A stretch of 31,853 nt of DNA, taken from positions 1 through 31,853 of the IMG/VR virus record IMGVR_UViG_3300031589_000012. The stretch is one strand, 5' to 3'. A program made the position numbers and the translations under genes. Positions 5,701 through 21,975 of this stretch are shown here, piece after piece. Under the pieces are notes generated by a model. That model searched no databases, was not told the origin of the DNA, and saw only the letters and a program-made list of their open reading frames with translations. The stretch is from a virus. Its lineage: Duplodnaviria > Caudoviricetes. Position 1 is the first letter of the stretch, and each line of letters starts with the position of its first letter.

Positions 5701-8700
5701 CTGTTTGCTCAAGACTGTTTAATATATCTAAACCTGTTTGAGTATCTGCTCCTATTGTCTTTATATTCAACGCTCCTCTCTTTGGCTTTACACCATAAGT
5801 GTTCATCAAAGACTCAAAAGCATCTAATTTATTTAAAGGAATAGAACTAAGATCAGTCTTACCTAATTCCTGTAAAACCTCTACAAGAGCAATGTTTTCA
5901 GAACCAATTAATCCCTTTTTTATATTCTTATCAATTTGAGACTGTTTCTTTTTGGCATTAAATAAACGCTCTGAAATAGAAGCATCAACAAGTACTTTTG
6001 TTAGATAAGTGTTTAGCTTCTCTACTTGTTTAGCATCTGTTAACTTAGTTCTTAATGTCTTCGCTAATAAAAGCTTCGCTTGTCTATTTGATATTTTACC
6101 TTTGGCTTTTATATCTTTAATATAAGCAGCAACTTTATTAGCAGCTTTTCTATAAGCATTTTCAGATTGCTTCGCTGCTTTAGCCTCTAATTTTATTTGA
6201 GATTTTAAAGCCGATGCCTCATCAACTTCAATCTTAGATTGTGTTTGTCCTGTAATTTTTTTAGGAGAAGGCCCTCTTTTTTTACCAAACTTCCCTGGTT
6301 CAGCAGCTGCTTTCTGGTTTGATTCTTTGTTTCTTTGCTTAGTAGCAACTAAAGGTTCTCTGTTAGGATCAATAGATAGTACTTTATTTATATTTCTTTT
6401 TGTTGGTTTTAAGCCAGTTAGATTTTCAAATTTAATTTCTAAATCTACCAACCCAAGAGGTTTTCCAGTCTGTACATCTAACTTACCAGTAGGATTTGCA
6501 GTAATAAAATCAATAACTTCCTGAATAAGTTCCTTAGAATTTTCCTGAGTATATCCATCAAGTTCCATTATCTGAACATCTAATTCAGATTTAGGACTTT
6601 GACCATATTTGTTTTTTTTCTTAAACCAAAAACGTCTCATTTGAGGATTAATATTAGTTCTATCTCCAAAACGAGCGTAATCTTCTTCGGTTATTTTTCC
6701 TATAATTCCTTTTATATCTAAAGGATCAGCTAAAGATTCTTGTTCTGACTTACTAAGTTCTTTTGATCTTTTTTTCTCTGCATCAATAGTCTCAGCAATT
6801 TCTTTTATGTTGTTAGAATTTTCTGCAATCTCAGCAGTGTATTGTTCTGGTGTTAAATTAGTAGACTCATCTAAATTTAAAGGAGCGCCATCATTAACAT
6901 CTATAATGTTTTCAAGGATATACTCTTGAACAGCTGGTTTAATTGGCCCATCTAAAGGTCTACCTGTTTTTCTTTCTACAGCACTAATTGTTCCATCAGA
7001 AGATACTTCAATATCTACCGAACGACTTCCAGGTACTCTATATCTTCCTGGTTGTTTTTGACGCTTAGTTGTAAATCCTTCTACTTTCTTTTCCTGCTCT
7101 TTAGTAGGGGTGTCCTGGGTTTGGCTTTCTTGACCAACTTCGGTAGTCTCTTGGTTGACGTTGCTTTCTCCCACTCCTTGGCCATCGCTGGTTTGTTCTT
7201 GTACATCCAGGCTCTCTGTTTCTGACTTTTGAACGGCATCTTCTTTGGTTTTAGTTGTTTCTGTTTCTATACCTAACTTCTGTTTCTGGTCAGTTGTTAA
7301 GCCTGCTGTCTTTTTAGGATTGTTTACTTCATTACCAGAAATTTCTGATGTCTTCTCAACAACATCACCATCATATTCAAAACCAGCTCTTACTTGTTGT
7401 TCAGCAGTTAATCCTTTTCTGATAATAATAGCATTGTCACCAAGTTTTGTATTTTGTTTGTTAACTTGATTTCCTTCTGCATCAAAAAACACAGATTCAG
7501 CTGGGCCAAGTGAACCATCTAAGTATGTGTTTACAGTTACCTCTACTCTGCCACCATCCTCAGTAGTTACAGTAAATAATTCTTTCTTGAAAACAACATT
7601 ATTATCTTGAAACTTTTTTGTTTCTTCTTCTGCGGCTATTGCGTTTTCAGCTTGCTGATCAGAGTTTTTAAGCTGCTCCATCATGGCTTGTTGCTTATCA
7701 CGTAAACTGTTGGGGTTGAAGGATGTTTCTCCTTCTAAAACAAGTTGGTCAATAGCGTCTTGTTCTGTTACAACTAAATTTTCAGTGAAAGTATTACCAT
7801 CTCTTTCAATAGTAACACTCTCACTTAATGCACCATCATACTTTTGAACCAGCGCTTTTATTTGTTCATTTATCTGGTCTCTTTTTAACCTTGTAGTCTC
7901 TGATCTTGAATCAGGAAGTTTGCTTTTTTCAATCTCTAATTTAATAAGAGCATCCATATCTGGCCCAACAGGAACATTAGTTGTCTCTGATATTTCTAAT
8001 TCAAACTGTGAAGTAGCTTTTAAGTCAGTTACAACTTTCTTAATATCAGAATCATTCTTAACAACAATATTCATCTCTGCAATTTGAGCAGGAGTAGCCG
8101 TACCTATCGTTGCTAAAATATAATTTTTAGTAACAAGATCGCCATTTAAACTGTATTGAGGAGTTGTATAAACACCTCTTGCTATAGATATTGGAGCATT
8201 ACCTGCTCCTGCAAAACCTTCAAGACCTATTTCAGCCACGTCCATTTTCTGACCAGCAGCAAGTCTTGCTACCGCTTCACCTGTACTACCTCCAACAATC
8301 TCAACACCTAAACCAGCTGATATCTCAATACCTTTGTTTACCATAGCTCTGGTAACAGTTCCTTTACCTCCAGTAGCTAACAATTTTTCTGTTGCGCTTG
8401 CTAAAACTGTACGTGTAGCTCCAACAGCTTTTCCAGCAAGACCAGCAGTCAAGGCGTCAATCATACCTATAGCAAGACCTCTCGCTGCGGCTCTATTTCT
8501 AATACTTTGAAGAGCTTCAGGATCATTTAAAACTTTTCGTATTCCTTCTTGATTAAATTTACCTCCTTTTTTTTCAACCTCTTCTTTCATAAACTCAGTA
8601 TAAGACATACCAAATTCCAAAGCAGACGAAGCGCCACCCATAGCTCCAGCTACACCACCTGCTCCTGCTCCAAATAAAGCTAAAGGCCCACCTGCTGCTG

Positions 8701-9625
8701 TTAGTGCAGCACCTGTACCTGCTCCCACCGCTGCTCCTGCTCCTGCTGCTGCAAGAGATCCTGGATTAAACATTGAAGCAAGTGAGTCAACAAGTAATTC
8801 TGGAGCTATAGAAAGGTTTGATCCAAAGCCAAGCATAAAACCAAGTACACCACCACCATTTGATTCGTAAATTTTCTGAAAGCTTTTCATTTCATCTGAA
8901 ACAGCAACATTTTCAGATTGTTTAACAGCAGCTATATAATTTTCTAATTCTTCTGGTGAGATATTTTTTCCTTTTGCAAATAAAGCAATAGAATCGTCTA
9001 CAGACTGTCCTTTAGTAAAACCATTACCAATAGCTCTATATATATCACCCCAGAAATCAGCACTTAAAACTCCTAAAATTGGAACATCATCAAACGCCCA
9101 ATCAGAAGCTTTTCCTAACCAGCTTTCTTCAAGCCAAGTCGTACCTTCTTCTAATTCTTTTTCTTCGTCAACTACATTACCTTGTTCGTCAAATTGAAAA
9201 ATATCAGTACCACCTTCCATCATTTCTGAAATTCTTTCAGTGGCAGTTGAATTAGGATTTTCTACTCCAGGAAGAGTATCTTGAGGAGTTTCAATGTTTT
9301 CCTCTACAATAGTTTCATTTGGGTTTTCAACTATTATGTCTGAAGAATCCGAAGATCCAACTGTCTCCACTGTAGGAGTTGAAGTATTTGATTCCGTATT
9401 TTCCGTTGGAGAAATAATAGGAGAATCTCCAGTTTCGATTTTTTTTTTTCGTGTAAAATTAACACCTTCTTTAAAGTCTTCGATTGAATCAAAAGAACCA
9501 TCTTTTAAAAGACCAAATATAGTTTCTGGATCAGCACCATCAGTAAAGTCTATAAATTCTTGTAAAGAATCGAACGCACCTTCTTGAAGTAAATCGTATT
9601 CAAATAAATCTTCTATTTCAAACAT
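2774..9625 (-). CDS. Giant internal virion/ejection protein (T7 gp16 position; large polyvalent-type), 2283 aa
   Basis: Last gene of the structural operon. Acidic N-terminus, Gly/Ala-rich hydrophobic segments (about 8240-8870), acidic linkers, long helical C-terminal half. No RNA polymerase DxDxD motif seen. Confidence 0.75.
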   Translation of the reverse strand: MFEIEDLFEYDLLQEGAFDSLQEFIDFTDGADPETIFGLLKDGSFDSIEDFKEGVNFTRKKKIETGDSPIISPTENTESNTSTPTVETVGSSDSSDIIVENPNETIVEENIETPQDTLPGVENPNSTATERISEMMEGGTDIFQFDEQGNVVDEEKELEEGTTWLEESWLGKASDWAFDDVPILGVLSADFWGDIYRAIGNGFTKGQSVDDSIALFAKGKNISPEELENYIAAVKQSENVAVSDEMKSFQKIYESNGGGVLGFMLGFGSNLSIAPELLVDSLASMFNPGSLAAAGAGAAVGAGTGAALTAAGGPLALFGAGAGGVAGAMGGASSALEFGMSYTEFMKEEVEKKGGKFNQEGIRKVLNDPEALQSIRNRAAARGLAIGMIDALTAGLAGKAVGATRTVLASATEKLLATGGKGTVTRAMVNKGIEISAGLGVEIVGGSTGEAVARLAAGQKMDVAEIGLEGFAGAGNAPISIARGVYTTPQYSLNGDLVTKNYILATIGTATPAQIAEMNIVVKNDSDIKKVVTDLKATSQFELEISETTNVPVGPDMDALIKLEIEKSKLPDSRSETTRLKRDQINEQIKALVQKYDGALSESVTIERDGNTFTENLVVTEQDAIDQLVLEGETSFNPNSLRDKQQAMMEQLKNSDQQAENAIAAEEETKKFQDNNVVFKKELFTVTTEDGGRVEVTVNTYLDGSLGPAESVFFDAEGNQVNKQNTKLGDNAIIIRKGLTAEQQVRAGFEYDGDVVEKTSEISGNEVNNPKKTAGLTTDQKQKLGIETETTKTKEDAVQKSETESLDVQEQTSDGQGVGESNVNQETTEVGQESQTQDTPTKEQEKKVEGFTTKRQKQPGRYRVPGSRSVDIEVSSDGTISAVERKTGRPLDGPIKPAVQEYILENIIDVNDGAPLNLDESTNLTPEQYTAEIAENSNNIKEIAETIDAEKKRSKELSKSEQESLADPLDIKGIIGKITEEDYARFGDRTNINPQMRRFWFKKKNKYGQSPKSELDVQIMELDGYTQENSKELIQEVIDFITANPTGKLDVQTGKPLGLVDLEIKFENLTGLKPTKRNINKVLSIDPNREPLVATKQRNKESNQKAAAEPGKFGKKRGPSPKKITGQTQSKIEVDEASALKSQIKLEAKAAKQSENAYRKAANKVAAYIKDIKAKGKISNRQAKLLLAKTLRTKLTDAKQVEKLNTYLTKVLVDASISERLFNAKKKQSQIDKNIKKGLIGSENIALVEVLQELGKTDLSSIPLNKLDAFESLMNTYGVKPKRGALNIKTIGADTQTGLDILNSLEQTEEVEVAPKEEKEAKEYDLVEAITEIQTTKANLEAITDKESKLVADQINDFTKEDIESLIIEKEDGTFDYSQLEQLRGVKQNLAQGIVTPTAMNLLTEVISNKAAKKVSVPISKVTLKGIMLNLRNITSSIKTAIKSNTPSGKNILLDKVRSGPAAYIDNAFGNFNSKTIYENTFGKLAQVYERFTVDTKKDFGKIEAAERILEYDGKNILRRKLRVGTTANKIVAKKYKIRLLQLAREHILNIDKNGKENPVAPSAKKMIDATLKFFKDTEGYENDFKILNKIAEEFTVDGEISLDKLEKSLTTGEKKALKIYDDVNASLASKAKFTSAVLRSNRIDLLNGYSHRIVLSTSKDAEVDVKAKADTFANASTKGGTMVERQKGVRPVSFDPSLSAQRGVQETNLDYYMTPTVREVQKTANKVLKNMASEGTVPSVKAAKALQKSLTEILKVTFTETMRDVTLAEEVANKVKRTAYQAILASLPRMGAELVSNMTYLTTNPKAAARGFTKYATLSFLGRKKGAAILNALGSTETTKLFDPKSISSRMTDMSNFAQTSPKSQRARSAFMNVIGQLLKLGPKQTVGAIDTLASGMIQSPDKAISIPMWYGTFSQTFKNETGIDLSKKDMEAIGEGTSKIQNKDGSIKKEYEKAVERSTRKADQMGTMISSSNNPFKGVIKNQSRSVGESSGNISNMYRTVNKFMASFSLFEYGTVRNAIGALYRSGDMSRSQASAVLLAATARMTMYPILYGVFSQGFDELFSNAEVEEDESDIEDIIMRQTIGTMLQLMTRRSVGNVPNLIPSYGIEKFNELMLGDFREGEYNPFKHSISFSQFNEDDIAKKGFIATMAKIFAGPMGPILNTVERSVALLYRSQNNKTKESREKNMDELTSRMALESLGNMGLIPFYKDIRRIVMKDMFEDGVIERREAKAKKERKKYMEFLKVSDPEEYRYELKQDAAEKKELDDNEFQEDDDDKFED
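7081..7239 (-). CDS. Nested overlapping gene in the +1 frame of the giant protein: 52-aa basic protein MPFKSQKQRAWMYKNKPAMAKEWEKATSTKRLPKLVKKAKPRTPLLKSRKRK
   Basis: ATG 7239-7237 to TAG 7083-7081, with A-rich leader (ACTAAAACCAAAGAAG-ATG). Local GC is about 48% by hand count (76/159), with many G/C-ending codons in the host frame. Confidence 0.75.
   Translation of the reverse strand: MPFKSQKQRAWMYKNKPAMAKEWEKATSTKRLPKLVKKAKPRTPLLKSRKRK
9439..9449 (-). other. A11 homopolymer, candidate slippage/frameshift site near codon 60 of the giant gene
   Basis: Minus strand reads ACA CGA AAA AAA AAA ATC. The -1 frame stays open to TGA 9329-9327 and the +1 frame to TAA 9336-9334. Confidence 0.55.
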
Positions 9626-9628
9626 ATC

Positions 9629-11833
9629 TTATGGTGTTGTTTTTTTATCTGTCCACATTTTCATAATCCTGGCCTTATAAAGAGCCGCGCTTTCGCCTGT
9701 CTTTTGAGGATTTTTAGCCTGTATCAAGTTTACTGAAGGTCTTCCTCCAGCCTTTCTTTTTGCGTCTGTACTTTCTCTTTCTTTATTAACAGCTTGAATA
9801 CCGTTATTTATTGCTTCAGTAATAAGCTCTGCCATTTTTTGTTTAGACAAGTTTTGATCAAGTAAAATAGGAGTTGACGTTCCTGCTATATTAATCATTA
9901 CTACTTCTTCTCCCACACCTCTATTTGCATATGGGCCTGTTTTAAAATCTTGGGATAATTTACCAGTCGGATCTTTTGCGTCAAGTTCTGCTATATATTC
10001 ATTTAAAATTTTGTCAGCGTCAGCATCAGCAAATAATTTTGTCTTAGCATTACCAAGGTTAGATCTTTTAATATTCTTTTTAACCCCTGACTTTAATGCT
10101 TTCTGCATTATTTCATTAATAGACTCTTCAGCAGCGTCATCACCTTTCAGCCAATCTACAACTCCTCCTGTAGTGCCATCAAAAGCATCATCTAATAAAC
10201 TTAAAACAGTGTCTCCACCTGCATTTACTTTTTGATTTTCTGTAATTAAATCATAAGCCGCTCTTGGAGCGCCTCCAGCAAGTCTACCTGATCGTTTCTT
10301 TTTACCACTCAAATCATATTTAACTTCTTTCAGACCTTCTTCAATTTGAGTCCTGTTAGCTGCTTCACCTGTTAAACTTTTATATAGACCTGTTATTTCA
10401 TTTATTAGATCAACATCATTATAAGCTTCGTTTTCTGGGGTAGTAGGATCGTCAATTTCTCCAGTAGTAGATCTACGAGGTACTGATATCGGATCTTCTC
10501 CATCCTTGTAAAATATAATAGTATCATCATTTATATCAAAATCAACAATATCTGAAGTATCGTCTTTTTTATTATCATTTATATCTATTATTAAACTTCT
10601 AACAATATTTTCTGCATTTGCCGTATCACCTGTAAGAACATCCGCAAGTTGCGCAGCATACCCACCAATTTTTGTATCAATTTTACTTGTAGTCTGTGAC
10701 GCTGCACTTAATTGCTGCCCACTAAGTCCTTTAGTTTTTGTTGTTTTTTGTCCAAATTGAATAAGAATTTTGTCTTCCACAAAACCTTCTGCCGCAGTTT
10801 TTTGCCCATCTTTTAATGTAACACTTGGAGGCTGAGAACTGTAATCTGCTTCAATCCATTTAGATAAATCCTTACCTCCTTTATCAACAAACTCTTGCTC
10901 TGTTTGAGCAATTATATATCCATCATCACCAAAACTCTCGTTTACTAAAATATTAGCTATAGATAAATTATCAGAAAGTATAGATCCCTTTAAGGTATCT
11001 ACCATTTTGGTAAAATTAGTACCTCCTTCTTTTCCTTTTAAAGCGTCTTCCATTTCTCTTGCACCTTCACGAGTAACAACGATATTACCACCAGCTTCAA
11101 TAGTGTATCCACTAATTGTAGAGGTAATAAAAGCACCAACATTCTTTTTTTCATTAGCAATTAAAGAAGTTAAATCATACTTGGAATTATCATCTTGGTA
11201 TAACAATAAGTTATTCATGTTGTTAAAACTACCATAACGATCTTTTTGAGTTTCAAAATCAGGCATACTACCATCCTCATTTAATCTTACTAAATAAGAA
11301 TTACCTGTAGCAGAAGTGAAAGGAACTACGTTATTTAAATTATTAAAAGCTAATGTAGATTCCTTTATAGCTGTCTCCATTCCTGAAGCTATAATTTTGT
11401 TTGTTTTTGGATCAAGCTTTTGTCTTGATTCCGAAACTTTAAATTTTTCATTCCAATCTTTAGCTGCAATACCCCAGTTAGCCATGTCGTCTTTAGCTGT
11501 TTGAAGTGTAGCCATAAAATCAGCAGGCTTAATCTTACCTTTTTTCATTAGTTTAGACTGCATTAAAAGAGTTTCTTTTAAACCTTTAGCTGCCAATAAA
11601 ACTGTTTGTCCTAATGTTTGATTTTGAAACGAATCCGCTTTCTCTAACTGAGCAATTACATCGTCTGTATCTGTTTGTATCTTTGCTTTTTTCCCCTCTC
11701 TTTCGGTTGCTATAGCATTTACACCAGTGACAATTTTAGATGCCTCTTCTTGAAAATTTAACTGAGATCCTTCACGACCTTGATATATTTCGTAATCAGA
11801 TACTGATTCTTTTCTTGAAAATTCGTTTGCCAT
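9629..11833 (-). CDS. Putative internal virion/ejection protein (T7 gp15 position), 734 aa
   Basis: Lies between the small Ala-rich ejection protein and the giant protein; helical N-terminal half. Confidence 0.6.
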   Translation of the reverse strand: MANEFSRKESVSDYEIYQGREGSQLNFQEEASKIVTGVNAIATEREGKKAKIQTDTDDVIAQLEKADSFQNQTLGQTVLLAAKGLKETLLMQSKLMKKGKIKPADFMATLQTAKDDMANWGIAAKDWNEKFKVSESRQKLDPKTNKIIASGMETAIKESTLAFNNLNNVVPFTSATGNSYLVRLNEDGSMPDFETQKDRYGSFNNMNNLLLYQDDNSKYDLTSLIANEKKNVGAFITSTISGYTIEAGGNIVVTREGAREMEDALKGKEGGTNFTKMVDTLKGSILSDNLSIANILVNESFGDDGYIIAQTEQEFVDKGGKDLSKWIEADYSSQPPSVTLKDGQKTAAEGFVEDKILIQFGQKTTKTKGLSGQQLSAASQTTSKIDTKIGGYAAQLADVLTGDTANAENIVRSLIIDINDNKKDDTSDIVDFDINDDTIIFYKDGEDPISVPRRSTTGEIDDPTTPENEAYNDVDLINEITGLYKSLTGEAANRTQIEEGLKEVKYDLSGKKKRSGRLAGGAPRAAYDLITENQKVNAGGDTVLSLLDDAFDGTTGGVVDWLKGDDAAEESINEIMQKALKSGVKKNIKRSNLGNAKTKLFADADADKILNEYIAELDAKDPTGKLSQDFKTGPYANRGVGEEVVMINIAGTSTPILLDQNLSKQKMAELITEAINNGIQAVNKERESTDAKRKAGGRPSVNLIQAKNPQKTGESAALYKARIMKMWTDKKTTP

Positions 11834-11843
11834 TTTTTATATT

Positions 11844-12464
11844 TTATAATCCTGCTGCTTTATCAGCGGCCATTCTATCTAAATACGCTTGTTCAGCTGC
11901 AGTTGTTGCTCCTCCACCAAATAAAGGAGCTAATTGAGCTGCTTGACCAGCTGTACTTACAACACCAGAAATTCCTTGAGACATAGCTTGTGCTGAAGCT
12001 GCTGCTGATTCTTTAGCCACCTTATCTTGATCTTTTGCGTATCCTAAATCTATTCTTTTTAAATCTTGGTTTATAGCGTCTTTAGCATCAGCTTTCATTT
12101 TTTCATTAGCCTCTAAATCTTTTTGTAAAGCTAAACGTGTAGTGTTTGTACTTGCATCAGAAGCTTGTTGAACTAAGCCAACACCTGCTGCTAAATTACG
12201 ACTATCACCTTCTTGTAAGGCCTGTATGTTTTGAGTTTGTGCTTGTAAATTGTTTTGAAACGCAGCATCATATGCCTCGGTTGAAACATTTAAACCAGCG
12301 TAGAAGTTCTTTTCAGCTTTAGCTTTTGCTGCCGCCATTGCTTTTTTTGCTGCCGCTTCAGCTTCTTCTGACTTTCGTCCTTGCTTAGCTGACTGACTAA
12401 AAGAATTTATCGCTCCTCCTGCTGATGCCGCTACACCAATTACTGCTGCTGTTGTTACTGCCAT
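11844..12464 (-). CDS. Putative small ejection protein (T7 gp14 / P22 gp7-like), 206 aa
   Basis: Hydrophobic Ala/Gly N-terminus (MAVTTAAVIGVAASAGGAI), Ala/Gln coiled coil, second Gly/Ala segment near the C-terminus. Confidence 0.7.
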   Translation of the reverse strand: MAVTTAAVIGVAASAGGAINSFSQSAKQGRKSEEAEAAAKKAMAAAKAKAEKNFYAGLNVSTEAYDAAFQNNLQAQTQNIQALQEGDSRNLAAGVGLVQQASDASTNTTRLALQKDLEANEKMKADAKDAINQDLKRIDLGYAKDQDKVAKESAAASAQAMSQGISGVVSTAGQAAQLAPLFGGGATTAAEQAYLDRMAADKAAGL

Positions 12465-12465
12465 G

Positions 12466-12876
12466 TTATAGTTTTTTAATCATTTCAATAGAATATGTAG
12501 AAGCTTCTTCATATCCTATTTTTTTATATACATTTATTAATGGTTTGTTTTTAATTAACGCATATACATATTTTTTATTTAAATTCTTAGCTTGTTCGGT
12601 TATTGTATTTACCAATAAGGCTAATCCATTTTTTCTGTTTTCACGATCTTTATAATGTATGTTAGATATAATCCAATCACACCAAACTGCTGTAGAGTTA
12701 GTTGTGTACATAAACCCTGCGCAAATAGGAATTTCTTGATCATAAACTATATAACCTCCAGTTCCATTTTCTGGAAGAAAATCTTTTGCAGGTGCAGTCC
12801 ATCTCCAATCATTCCACCAATCAACAAGTATACTGTCGTAATCGCCTGCTTCTAATGGTCGTATATTTAATTTCAT
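12466..12876 (-). CDS. GNAT-fold acetyltransferase-like protein (T7 gp13 position), 136 aa
   Basis: MKLNIRPL start, beta strands GGYIVY and ICAGFMY, and C-terminal N..LINVYKKIGY GNAT motif. Confidence 0.75.
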   Translation of the reverse strand: MKLNIRPLEAGDYDSILVDWWNDWRWTAPAKDFLPENGTGGYIVYDQEIPICAGFMYTTNSTAVWCDWIISNIHYKDRENRKNGLALLVNTITEQAKNLNKKYVYALIKNKPLINVYKKIGYEEASTYSIEMIKKL

Positions 12877-21543: not shown

Positions 21544-21578
21544 AAAAAAAAAGAGGTTACTTTTTTTTGTAACCTCTT
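21544..21578 (-). terminator. Rho-independent terminator
   Basis: Perfect 10-bp stem AAGAGGTTAC/GTAACCTCTT, 8-nt loop, followed by a U-tract on the minus strand. Confidence 0.85.
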
Positions 21579-21946: not shown

Positions 21947-21975
21947 AAAAAAAAAGCCACCCTTTTAAGGTAGCT
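21947..21975 (-). terminator. Rho-independent terminator
   Basis: Minus-strand stem AGCTACC/GGTGGCT (one G-U pair) running into a U9 tract. Confidence 0.75.

Follow-up and report, generated by a model that had tools for sequence, protein, structure and literature searches.

Transcriptional frameshifting on a run of eleven adenines (A11) is described for tssM1 of Citrobacter rodentium, the mRNA of which carried 10–15 A's (PMC4256274), and a nine-base run is described for dnaX (tau/gamma) of Thermus thermophilus, in which extra A's are added in diminishing proportion and short and long products with a common N-terminus are formed (PMC5009743). A comparable A11 run is present in the DNA analyzed here, namely, a stretch of 31,853 nucleotides from a marine Caudoviricetes phage (IMG/VR record IMGVR_UViG_3300031589_000012, positions 1 to 31,853; this whole stretch is hereafter called the window). 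The run lies on the minus strand near the start of the gene of a giant virion protein of 2283 amino acids (aa). Judging from sequence features, the element probably belongs with programmed transcriptional slippage of the tssM1 and Thermus dnaX type, since a coding run of at least nine A's, retention of the run beyond the needs of the protein and a seemingly selected product of a shifted frame were all found. The explanation considered best as a whole, and held to be rather probable, is that the host RNA polymerase slips at A11, which would yield a 99-aa protein in addition to the giant one.

As in tssM1, the run is A11 without evident ribosomal stimulators, and tssM1 provides, in two lengths, a component of an injection machine that spans the envelope (PMC4256274). 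In tssM1, however, the slip rescues the long form, whereas here the long form would be the default and the slip, close to the start of the gene, would open a hidden C-terminal domain that is under selection; moreover, the gene studied here belongs to a phage. In Thermus dnaX, stops are located near the run in both shifted frames, so that only truncation results, whereas here both frames are open for about 35 codons and one of them encodes a conserved peptide. The gpG/gpGT proteins of lambda and the capsid extensions of T7 or Kuravirus (PMC5009743, PMC9965538) are similar in that a phage morphogenesis gene gives two products with a common N-terminus in a set ratio; the shifts there are ribosomal, go by −1 on heptamers close to where a short gene ends and give a longer product, whereas here the slip on 10 A's, close to where a giant gene starts, would give a shorter one. 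Most known recoding in phages is ribosomal and is located where tail-chaperone or capsid genes end, whereas the site considered here is near the start of an ejection-type gene. Paramyxovirus P/V editing, with both of its alternative open reading frames (ORFs), and potyvirus P3N-PIPO (PMC5009743) also rely on polymerase slippage opening overlapping ORFs behind one common N-domain; these viruses have RNA genomes, a polymerase of their own and different slip motifs, and the likeness is one of logic, not of descent. No description of the element composed of an A-run and a tail was found in the literature searched, with most subscription papers and supplements being outside reach. Slippage of the tssM1 and dnaX type is thus already known, and what is probably new is that the slip would open a domain under selection inside a virion gene of a phage.

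The A11 run and its conservation among relatives

The run occupies codons 59–63 (CGA AAA AAA AAA ATC) of the giant ORF (Table 1) and is the longest homopolymer in the window, in agreement with the initial annotation, which had singled it out as the longest coding homopolymer. The reading of the shifted frames given there was likewise reproduced: the −1 frame is closed upstream by TAA (9461–9459), has no start codon of its own and ends, as does the +1 frame, at the stop listed in Table 1; one extra A gives a product of 99 aa, and one A fewer gives 96 aa. The five codons before GA said to carry disfavoured endings were found at codons 63, 74, 77, 86 and 92, and the codons concerned are indeed rare in the giant gene (ATC, 6/150 Ile; ACG, 7/169 Thr; GTG, 9/132 Val; TCG, 6/163 Ser). 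According to synonymous shuffling, A11 is expected 0.97 times in the 20 genes of the window, and consequently the run by itself lacks significance. For the open −1 frame of 33 codons, P is about 5e-4 in the window genome, and this is the least likely open 33-codon stretch of the giant gene; openness of the +1 frame does not reach significance when this genome is taken alone (P 0.09–0.13) but does so across the relatives.

The first set of relatives was collected by similarity to the N-terminal domain preceding the run (N-domain) and comprised 51 sequences, of which 29 were distinct over the first 300 bases and 28 reached the site. A run of A9–A13 was present in all 28, with the giant ORF in frame in 26 and out of frame in two short contigs (L052 and L063). 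Because one N-domain search word contained lysines, a second set was fetched via the GNAT-like gene, blind to the run. From at least 567 IMG/VR stretches with this anchor gene, the best 80 were taken; 26 of these end before the giant gene and 54 reach it, giving 48 non-identical loci, which, being related, are not fully independent in the comparative counts. The run was present in 48/48 loci (44 A10, 3 A11 and 1 A9), as compared with 22 runs expected from the same residues, and the giant ORF was in frame in all 48. Lysine codons within the run were almost exclusively AAA (129 AAA and 2 AAG), while elsewhere in the same genes 2377 AAA and 909 AAG were counted; the run is thus not broken by AAG codons, which the initial annotation had named as an outcome that would speak against its idea. 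Its length is constant although its codon phase varies, with five combinations of start and end, and in the phase of 14/48 loci it contains only two whole AAA codons.

The cultured relatives belong to Elemovirus, Callevirus, Baltivirus, Bacelvirus and Gundelvirus. In elemoE, phi38:1, Calle_1 and Gundel_1, A10 is in frame and is followed by an open −1 frame rich in Arg, Gly and aromatic residues. The element thus occurs in several named genera among the phages of Flavobacteria and in a large uncultured group, represented by the stretches with the anchor gene, and since cultured members exist, RNA and proteomic tests are direct. The A-run is real and, together with its open −1 frame, is beyond chance.

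The N-domain is 55–70 aa long in 47/48 relatives (mean net charge −8.9). Since N-domains are highly diverse while the run and the tail are constant, the run plus the tail is the more conserved unit. As separate observations, several N-domain types preceding the run look unrelated (P0018, P0023, P0027, P0029, P0031; L035:30571; L136), usually with one short motif occurring twice, and in P0012 the tail stands behind an N-terminal part unlike the other N-domains, in a possibly chimeric contig.

Predicted peptides of the two shifted frames

The −1 frame was open for at least 24 codons in 47/48 GNAT-fetched loci, with 5.8 expected, and the W-x-F-G-like motif suggested by the initial annotation was present as W-x-(F/I)-G. 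Over 22 disjoint close pairs, the ratio of nonsynonymous to synonymous differences (pN/pS) came to 0.51 for the −1 frame, as against 0.97 for frame 0 and 1.15 for the +1 frame, on an alignment that had been fitted to the −1 peptide and thereby leans the test somewhat toward the −1 frame; the control value for the N-domain was 0.31 over 13 pairs. The 66 distinct tails share three short hydrophobic strands, and glycines are present in 64/65 and 65/66 rows with all four Gly codons in use, while the overlapping frame-0 residues vary (S/L and D/E/A/V/G). As judged from these substitution patterns, the −1-frame peptide is under purifying selection. The tail is basic and aromatic (mean charge +6; 24% aromatic residues). 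The AlphaFold model of the window tail has three strands (predicted local distance difference test, pLDDT, 80), and that of P0001, a natural in-frame relative, has four helices and three strands with no fixed packing (pLDDT 77; predicted template modelling score, pTM, 0.41); the tail is thus predicted to fold as a three-strand beta-meander. A TTCG motif in the tail was considered as an RNA hairpin and was dropped, its variation being synonymous for Phe-Gly in the −1 frame and no common fold being found.

The +1 frame was also open for at least 24 codons in 47/48 GNAT-fetched loci (9.3 to 9.7 expected), and codon usage points to specific avoidance of stops in it. Ile, Val and Leu codons ending in TA were found in 1/119 cases before a purine, where a +1 stop would arise, and in 24/62 before a pyrimidine. 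T-endings of two-fold −1-frame codons were found in 0/50 cases before AA or AG, where a +1 stop would likewise be created, and in 88/258 elsewhere; after dereplication to 23 loci, the counts were 0/24 and 47/129 (P 7e-5), and no such bias was seen in ordinary coding, used as a control. The helical hydrophobic moment of the +1 peptides was 0.47 as compared with 0.34 and 0.38 in the controls, a comparison made on related sequences.

Thus, the gene likely makes, besides the 2283-residue protein, a hidden 99-residue protein, the tail domain of which is seen only in the shifted frame. The initial annotation had proposed that the acidic N-domain is also made as a short protein with an aromatic and basic tail; this idea gained support from the selected −1 peptide, whereas the +1 frame is kept free of stops without conservation of its residues. 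It had also proposed that slippage sets the copy number of the giant protein: any slip would lower the yield of the giant protein, but this leaves the selection on the tail sequence unexplained.

Probable polymerase slippage and alternative mechanisms

Polymerase slippage is efficient from nine A's in vivo, the RNA–DNA hybrid being 9–10 bp, and it adds one or several A's in falling proportion (PMC5009743). Taken together with the mRNA lengths of tssM1, these properties predict a run length near ten in any phase, the absence of stimulators and the use of both shifted frames. In the proposed scheme, A11 would be a conserved site of recoding, with stuttering of the host RNA polymerase on it as the likely cause: unslipped mRNA would give the 2283-aa virion protein, mRNA with one extra A would give the 99-aa protein, composed of the acidic N-domain and the selected basic-aromatic tail, and mRNA with two extra A's or one fewer would be read in the +1 frame, giving a third form of 96–97 aa. 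Such a third form would explain why the +1 frame is also kept free of stops. Stimulators of ribosomal shifting were sought in the 48 loci: a 3′ hairpin was not conserved (mean z −0.13 over 60 nt, with 3/48 below −2, in folding without pseudoknots), and Shine–Dalgarno (SD)-like words were found upstream in only 6/48. It should be noted that Bacteroidota make little use of SD pairing. The fixed run length, varied phase, absence of a hairpin and two open frames favour slippage of the RNA polymerase over ribosomal shifting, so that the former is taken to be fairly likely and the latter, in all its forms, a distinctly less likely possibility.

The slipping polymerase would be that of the host, as suggested by three negative results. 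In a Pfam search, an RpoB-family match was absent in 5/5 complete relatives (control found in 14/14), a test that a diverged phage RNA polymerase would escape, and the search for a T7-type polymerase was made without a positive control; the annotation of elemoE lists no polymerase; and the motif D-x-D-x-D, which is the catalytic motif of the crAss-type virion RNA polymerase, is absent from the 2283 aa of the giant protein. A promoter scan remained at chance level.

Several points weigh against this interpretation, mostly as regards the +1 frame. At the nested 52-aa gene (Table 1), which has no slip site, the third frame is open for at least 24 codons in 14/29 loci (2.5 expected), and hence dual coding alone inflates third-frame openness. 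The +1 frame is stopped within 1–10 codons in 6/71 loci, and phi38:1 and Calle_1 close it within about 16 codons; no +1 column reaches 80% conservation, and Arg and Trp replace each other freely. When four RNA runs, available as contigs only, were placed on positions 8500–10500, the segment 9170–9503 containing the run was left uncovered. Finally, A_AAA_AAA is in frame in 48/48 loci and is a valid −1 heptamer. Taking both sides into account, translation of the +1 frame at a level that matters seems reasonably probable, and a function of the +1 peptide in its own right seems doubtful.

It is on this heptamer that the best surviving alternative is based, namely, a programmed −1 ribosomal frameshift that would give the same 99-aa protein from a uniform mRNA, with the open +1 frame as a side effect of dual coding, for which the nested-gene counts provide a precedent. 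Certain tailed-phage shifts work without a stimulator (PMC5009743). On the other side, no hairpin or SD-like word is conserved. Seven bases would suffice for the heptamer, yet the run measures 9–11 in all 48 loci, and a −1 frameshift does not predict the specific avoidance of +1 stops. The strongest E. coli shift site is A_AAA_AAG, which is one synonymous change away and yet is present in 2/48 loci only. The E. coli dnaX site is described as highly shift-prone (PMC5009743). A −1 ribosomal frameshift is accordingly regarded as rather unlikely.

Still less probable is sliding of ribosomes in both directions on poly(A), by which both frames would be reached from a uniform mRNA. Sliding accounts for the two open frames and for the AAA-only codons, and in a purified E. 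coli system it was robust at A11, the length of the window run, but gave little product at A9 or A10 (PMC4363877), the lengths found in 45/48 relatives; the phase with just two whole AAA codons in 14/48 loci also speaks against it. A third alternative is phase variation at the DNA level, in which replication slippage would make A+1 genomes that express the short protein without recoding. It draws on rare records whose frame 0 leads into the tail (L052 and the 25 proteins of a tail profile search), on the exact identity of four of these proteins with the +1A product of an A10 locus and on the many elemo records that open at or shortly before the run. Nevertheless, all 48 GNAT-fetched loci are in frame, each of the 60 elemo records that cover the site agrees with the A10 query at ≥99% over 81 bases, which argues against phase variation, the tail-in-frame proteins looked up (10/10) are single-contig singletons, as would be the case for homopolymer noise, and loss of a virion gene by a phase switch would probably be lethal; this alternative is thus very improbable. 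Hardly credible, finally, is the absence of any second product, with KKK and a low-complexity linker opening the other frames by chance or the run being an assembly artefact: A11 is expected once per window and linkers are stop-poor in other frames, but the run in 48/48 loci and in cultured phages, the −1 frame open in 47/48 against 5.8, the frame-specific pN/pS and the invariant −1 glycines contradict it.

Under the polymerase slippage reading, the short protein would share the N-terminal handle of the giant, and its basic-aromatic sheet would grip DNA, a membrane or the beta-edge of a partner; it would help to load or place ejection proteins, pairwise like gpG/gpGT or the two TssM1 forms. 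From position and chemistry, it is tentatively suggested that the short protein is a minor component of virion assembly at a fixed ratio to the giant. No family or fold was matched by the short protein or its tail in Pfam, PHROG, PDB sequences, ESM Atlas and Foldseek PDB, or in the VIA wide search (best Z 3.0 and 3.6). A more far-reaching form of the slippage reading, a three-product switch shared by the whole family, appears less likely: stutter of the host polymerase on A10–11 would give the giant, a beta-meander isoform and an amphipathic-helix isoform in set ratios, all being used in assembly or entry. If this were true, paramyxovirus P-gene editing would have a counterpart in phages that has gone unnoticed in an abundant group of Bacteroidota podoviruses, and, with the nested basic microgene counted in, four proteins would be encoded by one gene.

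Gene setting, deposited genomes and neighbouring features

On the minus strand of the window lies a virion module of podovirus type with terminase, portal, structural genes in the capsid and ring positions, and a crAss-like muzzle. Matches to the capsid-position protein came from 85 phage records (68 Flavobacterium elemo, 15 Cellulophaga, Maribacter phage Panino and one spring-water genome), and the window phage is a Flavobacteria-type podovirus, kin of Elemovirus, Pervagoviridae and Pachyviridae. Downstream of the tail and structural genes, the GNAT-like gene is followed by a set of three genes, the giant being the largest and the last, as gp16 is in T7 (Table 1). The same small–medium–giant order after tail genes is known from the gp14/gp15/gp16 ejection operon of T7, for which the part of the source available mentions no recoding (PMC8954989). 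The giant protein itself, in contrast, has no sequence match to gp16 or to any solved chain in PDB, Pfam and named PHROG searches; it belongs to phrog_32588 (unknown function) and weakly matches an elemo structural protein (E 4e-6). In phi18:3, the gene in the corresponding position (gp123) carries an annotation of detection in virions by tandem mass spectrometry (MS/MS). From its position, a Gly/Ala-rich segment and this annotation, we infer that the giant is an ejection protein.

Table 1. Location of the slip element, its putative products and other features in the window, and of the A9 loci in deposited genomes.
Feature	Position	Strand	Remarks
Giant virion gene, 2283 aa	2774..9625	−	Last of three genes in T7 gp14/gp15/gp16 position; putative ejection/cargo protein
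N-terminal acidic domain, codons 1–59	9450..9625	−	Would be common to all products; two short repeats; predicted helical
A11, candidate slip site	9439..9449	−	A9–A11 in 48/48 GNAT-fetched relatives
−1-frame ORF overlapping the giant gene	9327..9438	−	Reached via one extra A; 37-residue basic-aromatic tail, 99-aa putative product; stop TGA 9329–9327
+1-frame extension	9334..9438	−	Reached via two extra A's or one fewer; 34 residues, 96- or 97-aa putative product; stop TAA 9336–9334
734-aa gene, gp15 position	9629..11833	−	Assigned by position and size only; no family match
206-aa gene, gp14 position	11844..12464	−	Virion structural protein family; phrog_13764, E 2.4e-6
GNAT-like gene	12466..12876	−	Anchor by which relatives were collected independently of the run
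Nested basic gene, 52 aa, +1 frame relative to the giant gene	7081..7239	−	Separate from the slip element
Deposited A9 loci	L036:35504-35767, L037:35475-35783, L072:5310-5621, L073:6056-6364, L034:31592-31774		phi13:2, phi46:3, phi18:3, phi19:3, Panino

Genomes with the giant ORF out of frame with its start, envisaged in the initial annotation, do exist among the deposited records, although they are probably due to under-calling of the homopolymer in sequencing. In phi13:2, phi46:3, phi18:3 and phi19:3 (Pachyviridae) and in Panino, the run is A9 and the giant ORF is one A short of frame; the annotation places the start of the giant further downstream and, in the four Cellulophaga phages, treats the N-domain as a small gene of its own. 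One added A restores the two commonest run contexts. The four Cellulophaga A9 genomes were presumably pyrosequenced, while phi38:1, of the same series, has A10, so that the A9 alleles may be real there. These genomes were rejected as proof of obligatory slippage, since Panino was assembled from Nanopore Flongle reads with Canu (PMC11590407), while Gundel_1, a family member sequenced by Illumina (PMC8776804), has A10 in frame. The slip element would also explain why the giant gene is split from its start in these five deposited genomes.

The tail profile search covered 1.84 billion proteins, and its 25 matches were 78–127 aa long, all with the tail behind an N-domain and 24 with KK at the joint; such proteins are best read as rare run-length variants or assembly noise rather than separate genes. 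Among the listed elemo records of full span, 25/53 start 56–57 bases before the query, that is, about 90 bases before the run, and seven listed records begin inside the run. This suggests that elemo assembly graphs break at the homopolymer, with length heterogeneity, real or technical, in the DNA reads.

The nested 52-aa gene starts with MPFKSQ and is located in the second linker of the giant. It was in the +1 frame in every locus of the GNAT set where tblastn found it, with offsets of 1.8–3.6 kb. No match to it was found in Pfam, PHROG or PDB; its neighbours in the Atlas are hypothetical viral proteins at 0.95, the nearest named cluster being DUF3008 at 0.84. Further homopolymers (A9, T8 and A9) are present outside long ORFs at 21544–21568 and 21947–21955, between the ring-position gene and a 254-aa gene, where they flank a doubtful 111-aa ORF starting with GTG.

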